The notes below the pieces were generated by a model, which was given only the letters and a program-made list of their open reading frames with translations, had not been told where the DNA came from and made no database searches. Made by a program: the position numbers and the translations under genes. A stretch of 64,000 nt of DNA from NCBI GenBank assembly GCA_963813815.1, contig CAWFAD010000012.1, positions 185,421-249,420 of the forward strand, read 5' to 3'. Within the stretch, counting starts at the first letter, position 1. Every line of letters begins with the position of its first letter. Below, piece by piece: positions 31,399 to 49,212 of the stretch. This DNA comes from an uncultured bacterium (GTDB lineage Bacteria; Krumholzibacteriota; Krumholzibacteriia; Krumholzibacteriales; Krumholzibacteriaceae).

Positions 31399-31427
31399 AT
31401 TCTACTCGGCCGGGGAGAGATGCGCAA
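31399..31427 (-). promoter_or_regulatory. sigma70-type promoter (near-leaderless transcript)
   Basis: TTGCGC-N17-TAGAAT, 9 nt before the ATG at 31389; no SD. Confidence 0.45.
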
Positions 31428-31553
31428 GGGCCATAAATAATCCGGGGAGAACGAAGTTCTCGTGCCGCCCCTGTACGACATTTGACTTCTTCGTTCTCCC
31501 CTTCGGCCGACCTTCGCGGGTAACACGAACCGTGTTCAGCGTTTGCCAGCGCT

Positions 31554-32516
31554 CTACTCGGTGGTTCGTTGTGCGGACTCATCGTCCCGTGTCCATGCTA
31601 CCCTCTCAACGATGGGGGGAATCGCTGACCTCTCGGCCAAGCTCGTTGTGCTCGCTGTCGGGCCGGGCATCGCGGTCCTCGACGATGACGAAACATCTAT
31701 CTCCGTACCGCTGCCCGGCGCGGCCGGAGCGAGGTCGCGGTTTTCGGGGTCGATCTGATACGCCCACAGGAAGGTGACGTAGTCCCCGTTGACCGCCGTG
31801 ACATACAGCTTCGCGTAATGGTAACCGTCCGTCTCGAGGAGCCGCACGATGTAGCAGTGATCGACGATCGCCTCGACCGTGCGGGAGGGGGACCAGCCAT
31901 CGAGCGGAGCGTAGTTGATCACATCGAAGTCGGTGACGTATCCGTAATCCTGCAGCTCCACGTTGGCCCGCCACGCCTCGATGATGGCGATCTCCGGCGT
32001 GCCGAAGAAGAAGATATCCGTCGTCGAAAGGTTGTACCGCTGCGGGGCGTTGCTGAGGCTCGAGAGATCGTATCCGGCGGTCTCCGGAAAAGTCTCATAA
32101 TCATCGAGAGCGAGTATGCCCTCCGGGCGCGGCGTCGCGGTGACCTCTTCGTAGCTGAGCTCGCTCTCGAGCCCGCCGGTGTCGAACGCCGTCACCGCGT
32201 AGTAGTACTGCTCTCCATTCGGCCTGATATCCTCGAAGCAGAACTCGATCTCGGTCGATTCCTCGACCAGCACGGTGCCGATATGGACGTATTCGCCGTA
32301 GAAATCCACGCCGCGGTAAACGTCGTAACCTTCGACATCGTCCTCGTAGTTCGCGAGCCAGCAGATGAGCGCCGATCCGTCGAGATTCACGGAGTAGACG
32401 TTGCGGGGCGCGGAAGGAGGGCAATCGGCCGGAACGGGCACGATCACGCGCTCCTTCTCACCGCAGGAGATGAGAAGAAGCGTCAGCACCGTTATGATCG
32501 CCGTCAATCTGTTCAT
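31554..32516 (-). CDS. Lipoprotein with fibronectin type III domain
   Basis: Lipobox LIS-C; PPSAPRN..W..GYDVYR..YYYAVTAFD..ESELS; GGAGGA RBS. Confidence 0.85.
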   Translation of the reverse strand: MNRLTAIITVLTLLLISCGEKERVIVPVPADCPPSAPRNVYSVNLDGSALICWLANYEDDVEGYDVYRGVDFYGEYVHIGTVLVEESTEIEFCFEDIRPNGEQYYYAVTAFDTGGLESELSYEEVTATPRPEGILALDDYETFPETAGYDLSSLSNAPQRYNLSTTDIFFFGTPEIAIIEAWRANVELQDYGYVTDFDVINYAPLDGWSPSRTVEAIVDHCYIVRLLETDGYHYAKLYVTAVNGDYVTFLWAYQIDPENRDLAPAAPGSGTEIDVSSSSRTAMPGPTASTTSLAERSAIPPIVERVAWTRDDESAQRTTE

Positions 32517-32543
32517 TTCATCGCTCCTCCGCGCTCGTATATC

Positions 32544-32558
32544 GCAATCGATGTGCCA
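32544..32558 (-). promoter_or_regulatory. sigma54 (-24/-12) promoter
   Basis: Perfect consensus TGGCAC-ATCGA-TTGC just upstream of the RBS and ATG at 32516. Confidence 0.85.
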
Positions 32559-32788
32559 TGTGTCGAAGAAGAGGCGAAAACGGCCGCCGAGGGCAGCTCC
32601 GCGGCAGCCAACGGGAGTGATTTGAACGAATTGCGGCGTGTGAAATTTATTCGCCGAGGCCGCGGAGACGGCGCCGTGCCTCCGGCGATGACCCGTATCC
32701 TGTCGTCGGAACTCTACAGAGATGTCCTCATCGATGGACAGAACCGATTATGGGGAACGACGAATCTCGCGGGGGGCGAAAAAGAATA

Positions 32789-32879
32789 GTCAGAGGCATA
32801 AGGTGTGAGCACCGGAGGGGATGTCCATACTCACGTTCCTTAGGATCTCGCCAATCCAAAAGTTACTTATGCCCCTGAC
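32789..32879 (-). ncRNA. Candidate ~90-100 nt three-way-junction small RNA
   Basis: P1 GUCAGGGGCAUAAG/CUUAUGCCUCUGAC (14 bp); P2 GGAUU-GGCGA-GAUCC; P3 GUGAGUA-UGGA..UCCG-G-UGCUCAC. G-U pairs work only on the minus strand; own promoter; followed by UAUUCUUUUU. Confidence 0.65.
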
Positions 32880-32886
32880 GGAGACG

Positions 32887-32916
32887 ATGCTATGAGAGAA
32901 GGGATTTGAGAGTCAA
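32887..32916 (-). promoter_or_regulatory. sigma70-type promoter for the candidate sRNA
   Basis: TTGACT-N18-TAGCAT; predicted TSS coincides with the 5' end of P1. Confidence 0.6.
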
Positions 32917-32963
32917 GCAAATTTTCGCGGCGCCCGAGAGGTACCGCCTGGCGCCGAGCGCCT

Positions 32964-33106
32964 AAAAATCAAGCGGAGAGAAACCTCCCGCTTCTTGTCC
33001 TAGAGACCCCACCTTTTCCCCTTCTAGCTCCAGGAGAACCTAGCTTGACAAGAAGCCTTTGATCTCTCTCCGCTTTGCCGATCCCCTTCGCCAACCGATA
33101 CCTGAA
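32964..33106 (-). ncRNA. Candidate ~140 nt sigma54-dependent hairpin small RNA
   Basis: Long interrupted hairpin 33075-32971 (AAGCGGAGAGA/UCUCUCCGCUU; GCUUCUUGUC/GACAAGAAGC; CUAG/CUAG) ending in GAUUUUU; upstream -24/-12 motif. Confidence 0.6.
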
Positions 33107-33117
33107 CAGGTGAATAG

Positions 33118-33132
33118 GCATGGGGCGTACCA
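33118..33132 (-). promoter_or_regulatory. Candidate sigma54 (-24/-12) promoter
   Basis: TGGTAC-GCCCC-ATGC (GG-N10-GC), with an AT-rich, IHF-site-like tract at ~33163-33190. Confidence 0.6.
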
Positions 33133-33248
33133 AATGCGTCCAGAAGGTCAAATTGCGCGTGAAATTTAACTTATTATATTACAACAAGATGCGGCGCACC
33201 TCGCCGGGGCGCCCGCGACCCGGACCACGCCATTTCGCCGCGTGGAGC

Positions 33249-33320
33249 AAGAAGCTTGATATTTTTGGGATCGTCCCCGTATCCCATTATTTATAATGCC
33301 GTTAACCTATCAAGCATCTT
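33249..33320. promoter_or_regulatory. Inverted repeat pair, candidate enhancer (UAS) for the sigma54 activator
   Basis: AAGAAGCTTGATA (33249-33261) and TATCAAGCATCTT (33308-33320) are reverse complements at 12/13 positions. Confidence 0.45.
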
Positions 33321-33384
33321 TATAGCGTTTGTATACCACTTGAATAAATCGTACTGGCGGACCACGGGGGGGATTTGAACGCTA

Positions 33385-36300
33385 TCAGTAACCGTCCGCG
33401 ATCCTGAGGTCGCGGATCTTCTTGAGGAGAGTCGGGTAGCTGATGCCGAGCTCGCCGGAGGCGACGCTGCGGTTCCAGCCGTTGCGGATGAGACACTCGG
33501 ATATCACGCGCTTCTCGAGGTCCTTCACGCGGTCGGGCAGCGAAAGGCGATGCCGCTGCATCGTCGAATGCTCGCCCTCGTCGAAATCGATCGCCTCGGC
33601 CGTGATGATCCCCTCATCGTCGGTGATGATCACGGAGCGTTTCACGATTTTTTCGAGCTCGCGAACGTTCCCCGGCCACTCGTAAGCGGCCAGCAGGGCC
33701 AGCGCATCCTCCGCGAAACCGCGCACGTGCTTCTGCATCCGGTCGCCGAAGACCTTGAGGTAATACTCCGCGAGCAGGTGGATATCCTCGATCCGCTCCC
33801 GCAGCGGCGGAATCGTGATCGGAAAATCGTTGATCCGGTAATAGAGATCCTCGAGCATCGCGCCGTCCTTGACCATCGTCATGAGATCGCACTTCGACGC
33901 GAAAACGAGCCGGACGTTCACGGGGAGCATATCGTTTCCCCCCACGGGACGCACCTTCATGGTATCGAGAAACTGCAGCAACTTGCCCTGGAACACGACC
34001 GACGTCTTGGAGATCTCGTCGAGGAACACCGTGCCCCCGTCCGCTTCCGCGATCAGGCCCTTTTTGTCGCAGATGGCGCCGGTGAAGGAGCCCTTCACGT
34101 GGCCGAAAAGCTCGCTCTCGAGAATCGTCTCGGGGAGCGCCGCGCAGTTCACGTGGACGAATTTGCGCTCGCGCCGCGGGCTCATCGCATGGATGGCCTG
34201 GGCGACGAGCCCCTTCCCCGTTCCGGTCTCGCCCATGAGCAGCACCGTCACGTCGGATTGCGCGACCTTCCCCGCGAGGTTGAGCACGCGGAGCATCCTG
34301 TCGTTGCGCGTTATGACGTGGCGGAAATCGCCGATCCTCTTCCCCGGCTCATCCTTCGCCGCGGGAGACTGCACCGCGCTCCCCTGAACGAGGAAATCGA
34401 TGAACGAGGCGTACGAGGCGACGACGTCCGGAACCTGACCGATGCGCGGAGGCAGGCTGCCGTCGGCGTCCGACTGGAAGAACAGAAGCCCGAACGGCTC
34501 GCGGTCGCGGCAGAGCGGGTGGACATAGATCGGCCCGCCGCTGCCCGGAAGCTCGTCGCGGATCGCGGCCGTGCGCCGGTCGCGGAGCACGTCCGTGAGG
34601 AGCGCGCTGGAGGCGCAATCGGCGTCATCCCTGTCGAGGAACCATTCGGTGATCCGGCGGGCGGACTGCTCCGGAACGTCCCGTCTGGCGAGCACCGTCA
34701 CCTTGCGGCCGCCGGCGCCGCCCGCGAAGAGCGCGACGAAGCCGTACCGGAAGGTGATCTTTCCCATGAGATCGCCGAGGAGATAGTCGAGCACCGTGAT
34801 GAGGTGCGGATGTTTGGCGAGCATGCCGGACGTCTCAGCGGAGATCCCGGCCCCCGCCGCGGGCGAAGAGAGGTCTCCGGCGACCTCTTCCTCGATGCTC
34901 CGGCGCATCCTCCGCGCGCGGCGCAGCAGGTTGCGGTCGCGCAGGTCCTCCGCGATGCGCTGCGCCTCGTAGAGGTGCAGGAGGCATTCGTCCCGGTTCT
35001 TCATCTCGCGCTCGACGCGCGCCATGAGGAGATGGCTCTCCACGAGATCGCGGAACTCGTCCGTCCTCTCGAAATAGTCGAGCGTTCCGAGAACGAGCTT
35101 GCGGGCGCGATGGAACGAGTCCGTTCCGGCCTTCGTGACGAGGTGCTCGGCGAAGAGCAGGGCCGTCCGGTGCTCCTCGTACAGATTGTTCGAGTCGTGG
35201 AAGATCCTCATGCCGTCGGCGATGCGACGCTCCGATTCGTCGGAGTTGCCGAGCATCGCGTGGGCGAGAGCGACGGTCCTCTGGATATAGCCGATCTCGT
35301 GCGCTTCCCCGCACTTGCGGGCTACCTCGAGCGCGCGGGTGCCGACCGCGACCGCTTCCTCCGCCTTGCGCTGCCTGAGGAAGATCTCCGTCTCGCGCCG
35401 GAGCACCTCCGCGACGATGTCCCCCTCGGCGGATATCTTCTTTCCGCGCGCGAGCGCGGTCGAGTAGTTCTGAAGCGCTCCATCGAGGTCGCCTCTCGCC
35501 GCCATGAGATCGCCGAGATACTCGTCGGCGAGCGCTATCTCCCGCCCGAACCCGCGCCGCTCGGCGAGAACGCGCGCCTCGAGCAAATGCTTCTCGGACG
35601 CCGCGAACTCTCCGGTCCTCGCCTGGGTGACGCCGAGCTCGAGCGTGCTCCGCACGTAGAGAAGCTCGTTCCCCGCGAGATGACTCATCTTTCGCGCGCT
35701 CGCGAAAGCGCTCTCCGCGCTCGCGAAGTCCCGCGACTTGAGGTGCGTGATGCCGAGGTTGAGCGTCACGCGCGCCCGGTGCTGGCCGAGACCCATCTTC
35801 TCGCACAGCTCGAGCGCGCGGCCGAAGAAATGGATCGATCTCTGGAAACGGCACGCATCCTTGTGGAAAATTCCGAGGTTGTTGAGCACGTGGGCCTCGC
35901 CCACGAGATCCTCGATCCGCCGGTATGAGGCGAGCGCGTCGAGAAAATATTGCTCGGCCTCGTCGCGCTTCCCGAGCCGGTGATGGCAAACCGCCAGCAA
36001 CACCTGCACCCGGCCGACCTCGCGATGCTCGTCGGAGGTGCGGAGCAGGCGGTACGCCGTGAACGCCTCCTGAAGCGCCTTGTCGACCGCGCCCCGCTCG
36101 CGGAGAATGATGCCCCGCAGGTGCGCGAGCGTGCCCTTGCCGAACGAGTCGTTCTCGTCGCAGTTGGCCTCGGCGCTCTTGAGATACGTGGCGGCCTCGT
36201 GCAGCAGCCCCTTTTCGATGTAGGACGCGCTGATTTTGCGGTAGATCCGCAGCAGATCGGCCGGCTGCGGGGCGGCGTGTATTTTCTGGAGGGCCTTCTC

Positions 36301-36444
36301 GTAATACTCGAGCGCCACGGAGAAGTTCTCCGTGGAAAAATGCATGTCTCCGAGCTCTTCCTCGGAGCCTATCGCATTGTACTTCGGCCCGGACTTCTTC
36401 TTTTCGTATTCGAACTCGTCCTTGCCGCGGGAATCGTCAGGCAT
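33385..36444 (-). CDS. TPR-repeat sigma54-dependent transcriptional activator (TPR array - GAF-like - AAA+ - Fis HTH)
   Basis: About 520 aa of TPR-like helices; GETGTGKG, NCAALPETILESELFGHVKGSFTGA, FLDEI, DLYYRIN, WPGNVRELE; C-terminal HTH (NRSVASGELGISYPTL). Confidence 0.92.
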   Translation of the reverse strand: MPDDSRGKDEFEYEKKKSGPKYNAIGSEEELGDMHFSTENFSVALEYYEKALQKIHAAPQPADLLRIYRKISASYIEKGLLHEAATYLKSAEANCDENDSFGKGTLAHLRGIILRERGAVDKALQEAFTAYRLLRTSDEHREVGRVQVLLAVCHHRLGKRDEAEQYFLDALASYRRIEDLVGEAHVLNNLGIFHKDACRFQRSIHFFGRALELCEKMGLGQHRARVTLNLGITHLKSRDFASAESAFASARKMSHLAGNELLYVRSTLELGVTQARTGEFAASEKHLLEARVLAERRGFGREIALADEYLGDLMAARGDLDGALQNYSTALARGKKISAEGDIVAEVLRRETEIFLRQRKAEEAVAVGTRALEVARKCGEAHEIGYIQRTVALAHAMLGNSDESERRIADGMRIFHDSNNLYEEHRTALLFAEHLVTKAGTDSFHRARKLVLGTLDYFERTDEFRDLVESHLLMARVEREMKNRDECLLHLYEAQRIAEDLRDRNLLRRARRMRRSIEEEVAGDLSSPAAGAGISAETSGMLAKHPHLITVLDYLLGDLMGKITFRYGFVALFAGGAGGRKVTVLARRDVPEQSARRITEWFLDRDDADCASSALLTDVLRDRRTAAIRDELPGSGGPIYVHPLCRDREPFGLLFFQSDADGSLPPRIGQVPDVVASYASFIDFLVQGSAVQSPAAKDEPGKRIGDFRHVITRNDRMLRVLNLAGKVAQSDVTVLLMGETGTGKGLVAQAIHAMSPRRERKFVHVNCAALPETILESELFGHVKGSFTGAICDKKGLIAEADGGTVFLDEISKTSVVFQGKLLQFLDTMKVRPVGGNDMLPVNVRLVFASKCDLMTMVKDGAMLEDLYYRINDFPITIPPLRERIEDIHLLAEYYLKVFGDRMQKHVRGFAEDALALLAAYEWPGNVRELEKIVKRSVIITDDEGIITAEAIDFDEGEHSTMQRHRLSLPDRVKDLEKRVISECLIRNGWNRSVASGELGISYPTLLKKIRDLRIADGY

Positions 36445-36517
36445 CGGTTACTCCCAAAGGCAAAAGGTCGGCGATTCATCGTTTCCCGGACGAGAAAATC
36501 TCTCTGTGCTCTCGCAT

Positions 36518-36871
36518 TCAGTTCCTGTCGAGGCGCGGTTTCGAACCGATCCTTTCCAGGCTGCTATCCGCGCAATCGATGATGGTCGTCAGCGTAGAAC
36601 CCGGATTCGCGATTCCGTCCCCGGTTATTCTGCCGTTGCCGAAATCATCAGCATCGCCGCCGAGGATGCAATCCGATCCATCGTCCGACACCGGAATCTC
36701 GCCCTCGGTCATGAAGAAAAACGATCCGCAGAAGGGGAACGCGGTCGTCCGGATGAGGGCGGCGATCGACTGGATACGGAGCTCGAACGATGAACGTGCG
36801 GCAGAGACATCCGAGGAGGCGAAGATGGTGAGAACCAGTAGCGCAGAGAGGAGTGCCATGAGCCGTCTCAT
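36518..36871 (-). CDS. Small secreted protein (117 aa) with Gly/Asp-rich core; candidate signal-peptide precursor
   Basis: GAAGGAG RBS; Sec signal MRRLMALLSALLVLTIFASSDVSA; DDGSDCILGGDADDFGNG core; 73 bp upstream of the TPR activator. Confidence 0.7.
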   Translation of the reverse strand: MRRLMALLSALLVLTIFASSDVSAARSSFELRIQSIAALIRTTAFPFCGSFFFMTEGEIPVSDDGSDCILGGDADDFGNGRITGDGIANPGSTLTTIIDCADSSLERIGSKPRLDRN

Positions 36872-37063: not shown

Positions 37064-38455
37064 TTACGGGGAATCTATCGAATCGCCGCCTCCCGCTTCC
37101 TTGCGGAACTCGATCCCGTACTTTTCGAGCTTTTTGTAGAGGTTGCTCCGCTGCATGTCGAGCTGCCGGGCCGTTCGCGAGACGTTGCCGTTGTTCTCCC
37201 GGAGCTTCTTGAGGAGGTATTCCTTTTCCATGAAATCCTTGAACTCCTGATAGGTCTGGAGTCCGAAGGGATCCTTGCGCGCGTCCTCCTCGCGAGTGAG
37301 GGCGAGCGCGGGAAGATCGTCGCGCCGGATCGTCTCGCCGCTCGTGAGGATGCAGAGGCGCTCGATGAGGTTGCGCAGCTCGCGCACGTTACCCGGCCAC
37401 GCGTAGGTCATGAGCGCGTCGAGGGCGTCCGGGGCGAGCTTTTTCGCCGAGCGGCCGAGCTCTCCCGCGACCTGCCGCAGAAAGTACTCGGCGAGCATTT
37501 TGATATCGGATTTGCGCTCGCGAAGCGGCGGAATGCGGATGGGGACGACGTTCAGCCGGTAGAACAAATCTTCCCGGAACCTTCCCTTCCCCGCCTCCTC
37601 GAGCAGGCTCTTGTTCGACGCGGCGAGCACCCGCACGTCGACCCTTTTCGTCTCCGCCGCGCCCACCCGCTCGAAGGCCGACTCCTGGAGAACGCGCAGC
37701 ACCTTCGCCTGCGCCGAAAGGCTCATGTCCCCCACCTCGTCGAGAAAGAGCGTGCCCCCGTCGGCGAGCTCGAACTTGCCGATCCGCTGGGAAACGGCCC
37801 CCGTGAAAGACCCCTTCTCGTGGCCGAAAAGCTCGCTTTCTATGAGGTCTTCGGGGATCGCGGCGCAGTTCACCTCGATGAAGGGCTCGTCCACCCTCTT
37901 GGAGAGCTCGTGCAGCTTGCGGGCGACGAGCTCCTTGCCCGTGCCGTTCTCTCCCGTGATGAGCACGCGGGCGTTCGTCGGCGCCACCCGGCTCACCGTC
38001 TCCATGATGGCGAGCATTTCGCGATGCACTCCGATGATCTCGGTCTTGAGTCCGACGCGCTGCTCGAGCTGGACGTTCCGGCGGGCGAGATCCGCTTGCG
38101 CGAGTCCATTTCGTATGGTGAGGAGCAGGCGCTCCATGTCGATCGGCTTTTCGAGAAAATCGAACGCCCCGAGCTTCGTCGCCTCGACCGCCGTGCCGAT
38201 CGTGCCGTGTCCCGAGATGATGATGACGGGGAGGGAAGGGTGCCGCTCCCTGAGGGATCCGAGCACCTCGAGGCCGTCCATGCCCGGCATCTTTATATCG
38301 AGGAGAACGATATCGACCCGCTCGCTCGCCGCGAGATCGAGGGCGGCGCGGCCGTCGGCGGCGGAGAAGGTCTTGAATTTCTCGAACGAGAGAAGCCTCT
38401 CGAGCGAGCTTCTGATGCTTTCTTCGTCGTCGACGATGAGAACGCGTTTGCTCAT
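37064..38455 (-). CDS. NtrC/NtrX-family sigma54-dependent response regulator (REC-AAA+-HTH)
   Basis: VLIVDDE, LLDIKMPGMDG, GENGTGKE, ESELFGHEKGSFTGA, WPGNVREL, HTH. Confidence 0.93.
   Translation of the reverse strand: MSKRVLIVDDEESIRSSLERLLSFEKFKTFSAADGRAALDLAASERVDIVLLDIKMPGMDGLEVLGSLRERHPSLPVIIISGHGTIGTAVEATKLGAFDFLEKPIDMERLLLTIRNGLAQADLARRNVQLEQRVGLKTEIIGVHREMLAIMETVSRVAPTNARVLITGENGTGKELVARKLHELSKRVDEPFIEVNCAAIPEDLIESELFGHEKGSFTGAVSQRIGKFELADGGTLFLDEVGDMSLSAQAKVLRVLQESAFERVGAAETKRVDVRVLAASNKSLLEEAGKGRFREDLFYRLNVVPIRIPPLRERKSDIKMLAEYFLRQVAGELGRSAKKLAPDALDALMTYAWPGNVRELRNLIERLCILTSGETIRRDDLPALALTREEDARKDPFGLQTYQEFKDFMEKEYLLKKLRENNGNVSRTARQLDMQRSNLYKKLEKYGIEFRKEAGGGDSIDSP

Positions 38456-49135: not shown

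Positions 49136-49212
<77 letters not shown>

Follow-up and report, generated by a model that had tools for sequence, protein, structure and literature searches.

Downstream of a sigma54 activator gene lies an element, here called RNA1, that is almost certainly a real non-coding RNA. It is probably an Hfq-independent, base-pairing small RNA (sRNA) which is induced by the activator and represses it; for its loop, pairing with further leaders is predicted. A feedback role by base pairing is considered likely because the 5' arm of RNA1 complements the start of the activator's mRNA. This reading was built from sequence, covariation, synteny and computed complementarity and co-change; expression, activator binding, repression and an effect on a lipoprotein gene are what we infer from them. 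In the proposed mechanism, the activator would switch on RNA1 through a sigma54 promoter and upstream palindromes. The 5' arms of RNA1 would pair with the activator message over its AUG and upstream of its Shine-Dalgarno (SD) sequence and block its translation, giving negative feedback, and this pairing would be independent of Hfq. The GUGGGG loop would pair with other leaders, e.g. that of a beta-helix lipoprotein. Positions are given in Table 1 and refer to the window, i.e. the whole stretch of 64,000 nt that was analysed.

Table 1. Features of the module and its predicted targets (positions in the window unless a contig is named)
Feature	Position	Strand	Basis or remark
RNA1, predicted sRNA, ~145 nt	33106-32962	minus	inferred +1 to U-run
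Sigma54 -24/-12 box (TGGTAC-N5-ATGC)	33132-33118	minus	orthologous regions vs shuffles
RNA1 5' arm 1	33092-33105	minus	antisense over the activator AUG; 14 bp, G-U pairs included
RNA1 5' arm 2	33073-33092	minus	antisense to activator leader upstream of SD; duplex, cofold, covariation within f1
RNA1 long interrupted hairpin, 105 nt	33075-32971	minus	helices P1 and P2
Outer helix P1, 11 bp	33075-65 with 32981-71 (11-bp helix); 32983-71 as P1	minus	lengthened by G-U pairs on minus strand
Inner helix P2, 10 bp	33056-47 with 32999-90	minus	fold and covariation
Small apical hairpin P3	33027-33039	minus	read by eye from alignment and folds
RNA1 seed loop GGUGGGGUCUC	33003-33013	minus	GUGGGG core near-invariant across phylum
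RNA1 U-rich 3' end, terminator-like, after P1	32962-32970	minus	sequence and alignment
RNA2 (domain B), three-way junction	32879-32789	minus	loops UGGCGAGAU (32853-43) and AUGGACAUCCCCUCCGGU (32828-11)
Sigma70-type -35/-10 ahead of RNA2	32887-32916	minus	sequence and alignment
Second conserved sigma54 box	32544-32558	minus	ahead of lipoprotein-like gene
Lipoprotein-like gene, 320 aa	31554-32516	minus	synteny with the RNA locus kept up to class level; without Pfam match
Activator, 1019 aa, TPR + sigma54 AAA + Fis-HTH	33385-36444	minus	likely driver and feedback target of RNA1
Activator-mRNA sites complementary to RNA1 arms	36437-36474	minus	36450-36437 over AUG; 36474-36459 upstream of SD
Small protein, 117 aa, hydrophobic N-terminus, GGDADDxxNG core	36518-36871	minus	upstream of activator; no Pfam family
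IHF-like AT-rich site (weak)	33167-33184	minus	between enhancer and promoter; loose consensus match
Proximal palindromic upstream activator site (TRTAAAG-N3-CTTTAYA type)	33245-33261		129 nt before box
Distal palindromic upstream activator site	33308-33324		192 nt before box
Beta-helix/PKD lipoprotein gene (L088)	G000:C16:78254-79537 (gene handle G000:C16:78281)		between rsmG-like and parA-like genes

The original prediction had described the sigma54 box, a transcription start near 33106, a 105-nt interrupted hairpin with helices of 11 and 10 bp and a U-rich end. All of these were located, and the +1, placed by the usual -24/-12 spacing from the box, fits. RNA1 begins 255 nt past the end of the activator gene and lies ahead of the lipoprotein-like gene; GAUUUUUAG directly follows its hairpin on the 3' side. 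Promoter, U-run and antisense arm all favour assignment to the minus strand. The hairpin is more stable than expected by chance, and its folding scores do not by themselves favour the minus strand: it had a z-score of -2.4 on the minus strand (4 of 200 shuffles equally stable) and of -3.8 on the plus strand (0 of 200).

No Rfam family matches the element. Rfam 15 gave no match at the gathering score for the locus or for 39 related loci (best E 0.3), and with E-value thresholds there was likewise nothing for RNA1. The sole Rfam match in the window is a tRNA gene (49136-49209, plus strand). 6S RNA and SRP RNA were rejected: neither family matched, and ordinary 6S and SRP genes are present elsewhere in five of five genomes. 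Searches of the 2.5-Mb genome by blastn, nhmmer and the family profile returned no second copy of RNA1. A multi-copy REP/MITE repeat, named at the outset as one case against an sRNA, was ruled out because RNA1 is single-copy in its own genome. The literature search covered main texts and returned no description of RNA1; one might still stand in a motif catalogue within a supplement or a subscription paper.

A DNA search with the element gave matches in 28 of 61 genomes including its own; two were flanks and the others were the RNA. The regions downstream of the activator were read in 37 genomes of the same order (families f1-f3) and in 53 more distant ones (f4-f9), excluding genomes with a contig end or gap at the locus. 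Six genomes (G008, G011, G013, G014, G031 and G042) are cut or fragmented there, and an apparent loss of RNA1 in G023 was an assembly gap. The sigma54 box was found in 87 of the 90 regions, compared with a mean of 2.8 (maximum 8) in shuffles; GUGGGG was present in 37 of 37 (f1-f3) and 51 of 53 (f4-f9), the exceptions being one masked sequence and one GUGGGA, with the caveat that related genomes are not independent of one another. The distance from the activator-gene end to the box was 211-475 nt (median: 280 nt; 88 genomes). An independent scan of all GTDB species with the 19-nt loop hairpin of distant families as the query gave 35 matches, of which 31 had the box upstream, three were chance matches and one was cut.

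The relatives that keep RNA1 also show covariation in its helices. In 31 f1/f2 sequences, both-side changes occurred at 18 of 22 pairs of P1 and P2 (0 of 500 shuffles), and 89% of cells were paired, compared with 40–59% in slid controls. The distant families carry the seed in a loop of 7 nt; its short stem covaries, with compensatory variants, and opening the seed is predicted to cost ~0 kcal/mol. In the own genus, the seed loop is often predicted to be buried (median: 3.2 kcal/mol to open, a maximum of 8.6); the value for this genome is 0.4 kcal/mol. The loop and its closing A-U/G-C pairs are near-invariant. Size varied: the distant members are elaborate, with 280-350 nt or more. Longer versions, of ~260-330 nt, which have an additional domain at the 5' end and more invariant loops, such as GCUGCUGGCU, were seen in f6 and f9 (L058, L059, L301-L313), and ACCGGC is a further invariant loop in f4/f8. 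In G024 (L047, L018; G024:C74), ~2.3 kb of other sequence lies between the activator and the RNA, with the promoter kept.

The prediction of a sigma54-dependent regulatory sRNA was backed by the conserved box, the tandem upstream palindromes, covariation and synteny. RpoN was present in five of five genomes tested. Two 17-bp palindromes stand at fixed distances in f1-f3 (-128 to -133 and -192 to -195). At a threshold of at least 11 of 14 matches they were found in 33 and 46 of 88 regions, with 0.7 in proximal-region shuffles; the consensus was derived from the same sequences, and the spacing is independent of that. Among 14 such sites in the own genome, the two at the locus rank first and fifth and are the sole pair beside a sigma54 box. 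The adjacent activator is the protein that would bind them. Between them and the promoter, a loose IHF consensus was matched in 35 of 37 regions, compared with 20 in shuffles. The own genome (2.5 Mb) makes unusually heavy use of sigma54, with 29 near-consensus boxes and at least 13 matches to sigma54 activators. The promoters of the module could also be served by another sigma54 activator (receiver-AAA-HTH, NtrC/NtrX-like; 37064-38455, minus), encoded immediately upstream.

RNA1 is presumably made. The sole sign from RNA libraries is one contig of a relative in a soil RNA-Seq run (154 nt, depth 3, 90-95% alike), which covers 32914-33064; the rest of 31400-33700 had no match in that run. This is a weak hint of transcription: the run was found via this very stretch, and the contig could derive from DNA. 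It lacks the 5' arm of RNA1 and extends 50 nt beyond the U-run.

Three features described below go beyond the original prediction: the antisense arm, the seed loop and a second RNA. Of 201 genomes of the phylum, 183 have the activator (E<=1e-95), and pairing between arm and leader was tested in 63 genomes. The first 14 nt of RNA1 pair with the message over the activator AUG, and another part of the RNA does so upstream of the SD. Among 2,046 start regions, predicted from our own crude gene calls, the activator ranked first for the arm (-21.5 kcal/mol, next -17.4; and -42.5 kcal/mol, next -36.4). The cofold of the whole RNA1 with the activator leader gave -23.9 kcal/mol and left the hairpin intact. 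When hexamer seeds were ranked on the activator's own leaders, motifs of these RNAs came near the top.

The pairing partners change together. In f1, a cognate helix of 10-15 bp was found in 24 of 24 genomes, 20 of them over the AUG, with compensatory changes (e.g. G022, G019); the second helix, of arm 2, differs between the own genus and other genera. The cognate helix has 13 bp in f2. In f3, it consists of 7+7 bp round a bulged U in four of six genomes and is weak in the other two. Families f6/f9 have an unrelated arm that forms 9-11 bp on activator codons 3-6 in 12 of 12 genomes, where synonymous positions are fixed (the start of one leader in this set was hand-corrected). Arms of f1/f2 and f6/f9 do not cross-pair (-17 vs -5 to -7; -19.6 vs -7). 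In f4, f5, f7 and f8, the 5' end pairs over only 6-9 bp, no better than with other clades. In f4, f5 and f8, a different element stands in front of the activator SD: CUCGCC, the complement of a loop of domain B, in 10 of 10 leaders of f4, four of five of f5 and four of four of f8. None of the 12 f6/f9 leaders has it, and domain B is mostly missing in these two families. In nine of the 10 f4 leaders, CUCGCC adjoins (U/C)CC(A/G)C, a pentamer compatible with the seed.

Selection appears to act on the arm, since compensations maintain it and other clades replaced it; the arm possibly arose from an inverted copy of the leader. Pairing of RNA1 with the activator message is highly probable. Because arm and site co-change across families, negative feedback of the LuxO/Qrr type without Hfq is suggested. 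The AUG and codons 3-6 lie within the region covered by the initiating ribosome, and it is the position of the helices that points to repression. The opposite sign, i.e. pairing that raises activator expression by protecting the message or holding the SD open, is unlikely. The predicted helices lie on either side of the SD and leave it in a 9-nt loop, and the best helix of G019 lies upstream of the SD, as such positive feedback would have it; but the longest helix covers the AUG (20 of 24 genomes in f1; f2/f3) or codons 3-6 (f6/f9).

The second RNA, RNA2, follows RNA1 and showed both-side changes at 15 of 26 pairs. It lies behind a sigma70-type promoter in 34 of 37 f1-f3 genomes; two of the other three are cut, and G020 lacks RNA2. 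In f4/f8, RNA1 and RNA2 are contiguous and share one terminator, and RNA2 was not seen at the f6 locus. The GGCGAGA loop of RNA2 is complementary to the activator leaders in f4/f5/f8. The CCCCUCC loop resembles an anti-Shine-Dalgarno seed, for which no target was found. In G027 and G032 (L013, L016), the 3' half of RNA2 is partially duplicated in tandem directly after it. A role of RNA2 as a sponge of RNA1 was not supported: the isolated loops gave -10 to -12 kcal/mol, swaps were non-discriminating and the cofold gave -1.3, loop-loop pairing being beyond cofold.

For the GUGGGG loop of RNA1, the leader of the beta-helix lipoprotein is a fairly likely target, to judge by complementarity and its conservation. 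In this genome, the gene was chosen on account of its site; the seed duplex ranks it in places 3-5 of ~2,050 leaders. Judging by their protein sequences, its neighbours are rsmG and parA. CCCC(A/G)C was found in 34 of 50 orthologous lipoprotein leaders (outside the genus, 21 of 36), compared with 3/18, 4/30, 1/68 and 0/28 in control sets (together 8/144). Three loci were dropped from the lipoprotein set for N or for want of a start, and f7/f8 matches without an adjoining rsmG, 0 of 9 with the site, were excluded from the 50. Among 4,096 hexamer seeds, GUGGGG ranked first on the lipoprotein leaders, outside the genus too (24 of 36). At the variable position of the motif, 35 of 40 cases have A or G, both of which pair with U. 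The seed-complement motif was retained in three family-level groups. The gene itself was found in 0 of 7 genomes of f3 and 0 of 5 of f5, and the leader in G037 is without the site. GTTTCACGTGAAAC repeats, which we take to be parS-like, lie upstream of the lipoprotein locus in many relatives.

The cofold of RNA1 with the lipoprotein leader is uninformative on the seed, as cofold cannot model loop-loop pairing. With the site occupied, the ribosome site became easier to open, by >1 kcal/mol, in only 20 of 40 leaders, so that control may go in either direction. In f1, the site forms the predicted first ten nucleotides of the message, which tips the balance slightly away from repression and towards stabilising the message or exposing its ribosome site. 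A complement of an RNA2 loop in the lipoprotein leader was rejected, being unconserved and within the -35/-10 spacer.

Other targets were sought. The seed complement showed no genome-wide excess in leaders (30 vs 35 of 907), and among seven orthologous leaders from three relatives, none carried a core site that is also in this genome's leader. Scans for a regulon pattern gave no further shared target (loci were given to 30 of 34 matches in G033 and 30 of 79 in G040). The glnA leader was rejected with the site in only three of 18, and the flagellin leader with the site in one f7 locus and not in the sole f1 locus seen. The leader of an outer-membrane beta-barrel gene opens with a C-rich, seed-compatible site in eight of eight f3 loci (L271-L277, L290). 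As it is at background in f1, it was rejected as a general target; it is at most a possible f3-specific one.

That few trans targets were found would also suit an RNA whose GUGGGG and GGCGAGA loops mainly bind protein, as a scaffold or decoy, with base pairing secondary. The near-invariant loop with its closing pairs and the elaborate distant members agree with this as well, but we consider it improbable: the leader motif for which GUGGGG ranks as the best seed persists in three family-level groups, the seed-compatible pentamer adjoins CUCGCC in the f4 activator leaders, Hfq was not detected and ProQ was found in 0 of 5 genomes tested.

A translated micro-ORF, or a 5' leader/terminator element instead of a free RNA, is very improbable. 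The 16-codon GTG frame of the original prediction does exist, a purine-rich run stands before the GTG, its first three codons are invariant, and in f4/f8 the element continues into domain B as one unit. The frame, however, spans 4-85 codons with frame changes across 37 genomes, i.e. neither frame, length nor stop is conserved as in a small-protein gene; the invariance extends to third positions, RNA1 has its own U-run and the downstream gene its own sigma54 box. A CsrA/Hfq sponge in the manner of CsrB or CrcZ, the function once proposed on the strength of six GGA triplets (which this copy does contain), can practically be dismissed: none of 201 genomes yielded Hfq (control rings: 5 of 14), and CsrA, although present in 117 of the 201, was not found in the own genome, in 14 genus relatives, in 23 genomes of f6 or in 12 of f9 (sampled f6/f9 members keep the RNA), while GGA counts vary from 2 to 9 per RNA with none invariant, unlike the many conserved loop GGAs plus genomic CsrA of CsrB/RsmZ.

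Upstream of the activator, a small protein of 90-140 aa with a hydrophobic N-terminus and a GD(A/P)DD-type acidic core was found in 63 of 63 rows (two repeat a locus; the motif regex matched in 44 of 63). By analogy, it is hypothesised to be a candidate signal precursor, and peptide signalling is a tentative reading. The predicted complex of the activator TPR region (22-525) with small-protein residues 58-92 scored 0.02, compared with a mark of 0.32. Speculative too is the complete circuit, phylum-wide in Ca. Krumholzibacteriota, in which a secreted GDADD-core pro-peptide would be sensed by the TPR-sigma54 activator. As the activator's main output, an Hfq-free, modular RNA would silence its translation by means of arms invented anew in different families and set envelope genes via a G-rich loop. 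Tuning would come from the second RNA, which is fused or separate or has been lost, depending on the lineage. This would combine peptide quorum sensing with a LuxO/Qrr-like loop.

The RNA family is new to Rfam and to the literature searched, and is kept across a whole uncultured phylum in which Hfq was not detected. Its targets are readable from sequence. The same feedback site is served by different co-evolving arms from family to family, a rare natural record of sRNA-target rewiring with the circuit kept. If the secreted protein upstream is the signal, this would be the first cell-to-cell signalling system for the phylum.

Several known systems resemble parts of the module. In RRNPP peptide receptors, the gene of a TPR sensor adjoins that of a small secreted precursor, whose conserved core is short. 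Here, a small protein with a hydrophobic N-terminus and a conserved core is likewise encoded beside a TPR regulator. The difference is that the TPR region here forms one protein with a sigma54 AAA activator; that it binds the core is hypothetical. CrcZ is encoded downstream of cbrB and is reported to be an RpoN- and CbrB-linked sRNA, which likens it to RNA1. In contrast to CrcZ and CsrB-type RNAs, the protein partners are missing or patchy here and there is no conserved repeated motif.

FasX is not known to be sigma54-dependent. The predicted pairing of the RNA1 seed with the +1 of a lipoprotein leader is like that of FasX with ska. The FasX seed is C-rich, whereas here a G-rich seed meets a C-rich target, and there is no sequence likeness. 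In the available part of the source, FasX of Streptococcus pyogenes is described as pairing by a short motif with the 5' end of ska mRNA, which stabilises it (PMC4691137).

Pxr of the Myxococcales (RF01812) is described, in the parts of the two sources available, as a stem-loop sRNA with a sigma54 promoter ~260 nt downstream of the sigma54 regulator nla19/pxrR and with tandem paralogues in some species (PMC5568312, PMC5684412). The RNA1 box likewise lies downstream of a sigma54 regulator, at a similar median distance (280 nt). RF01812 exceeded its cut-off in 0 of 10 genomes, and the own genome had no match at E<=1. PxrR differs in being an NtrC-like response regulator with a kinase, and these parts of the sources describe no pairing of Pxr to the activator message (PMC5568312, PMC5684412).

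The closest parallel in function is LuxO-Qrr of Vibrio. LuxO is a sigma54 activator, and the Qrr sRNAs depend on sigma54. According to the part of the source available, LuxO turns on the Qrr sRNAs, which repress the luxO message in negative feedback, use distinct pairing regions for different targets and require Hfq (PMC3262071). The likeness here is the complementarity to the activator's own translation start (first of 2,046, with clade-specific co-change), from which repression is presumed. LuxO is a phospho-receiver, whereas the present activator has a TPR sensor; the Qrr sRNAs need Hfq, and none was found here in 201 genomes; RNA1 lies downstream of its activator in tandem and is without an Rfam match. 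RNA1 thus works most like LuxO-Qrr, is laid out like Pxr and is a member of neither.
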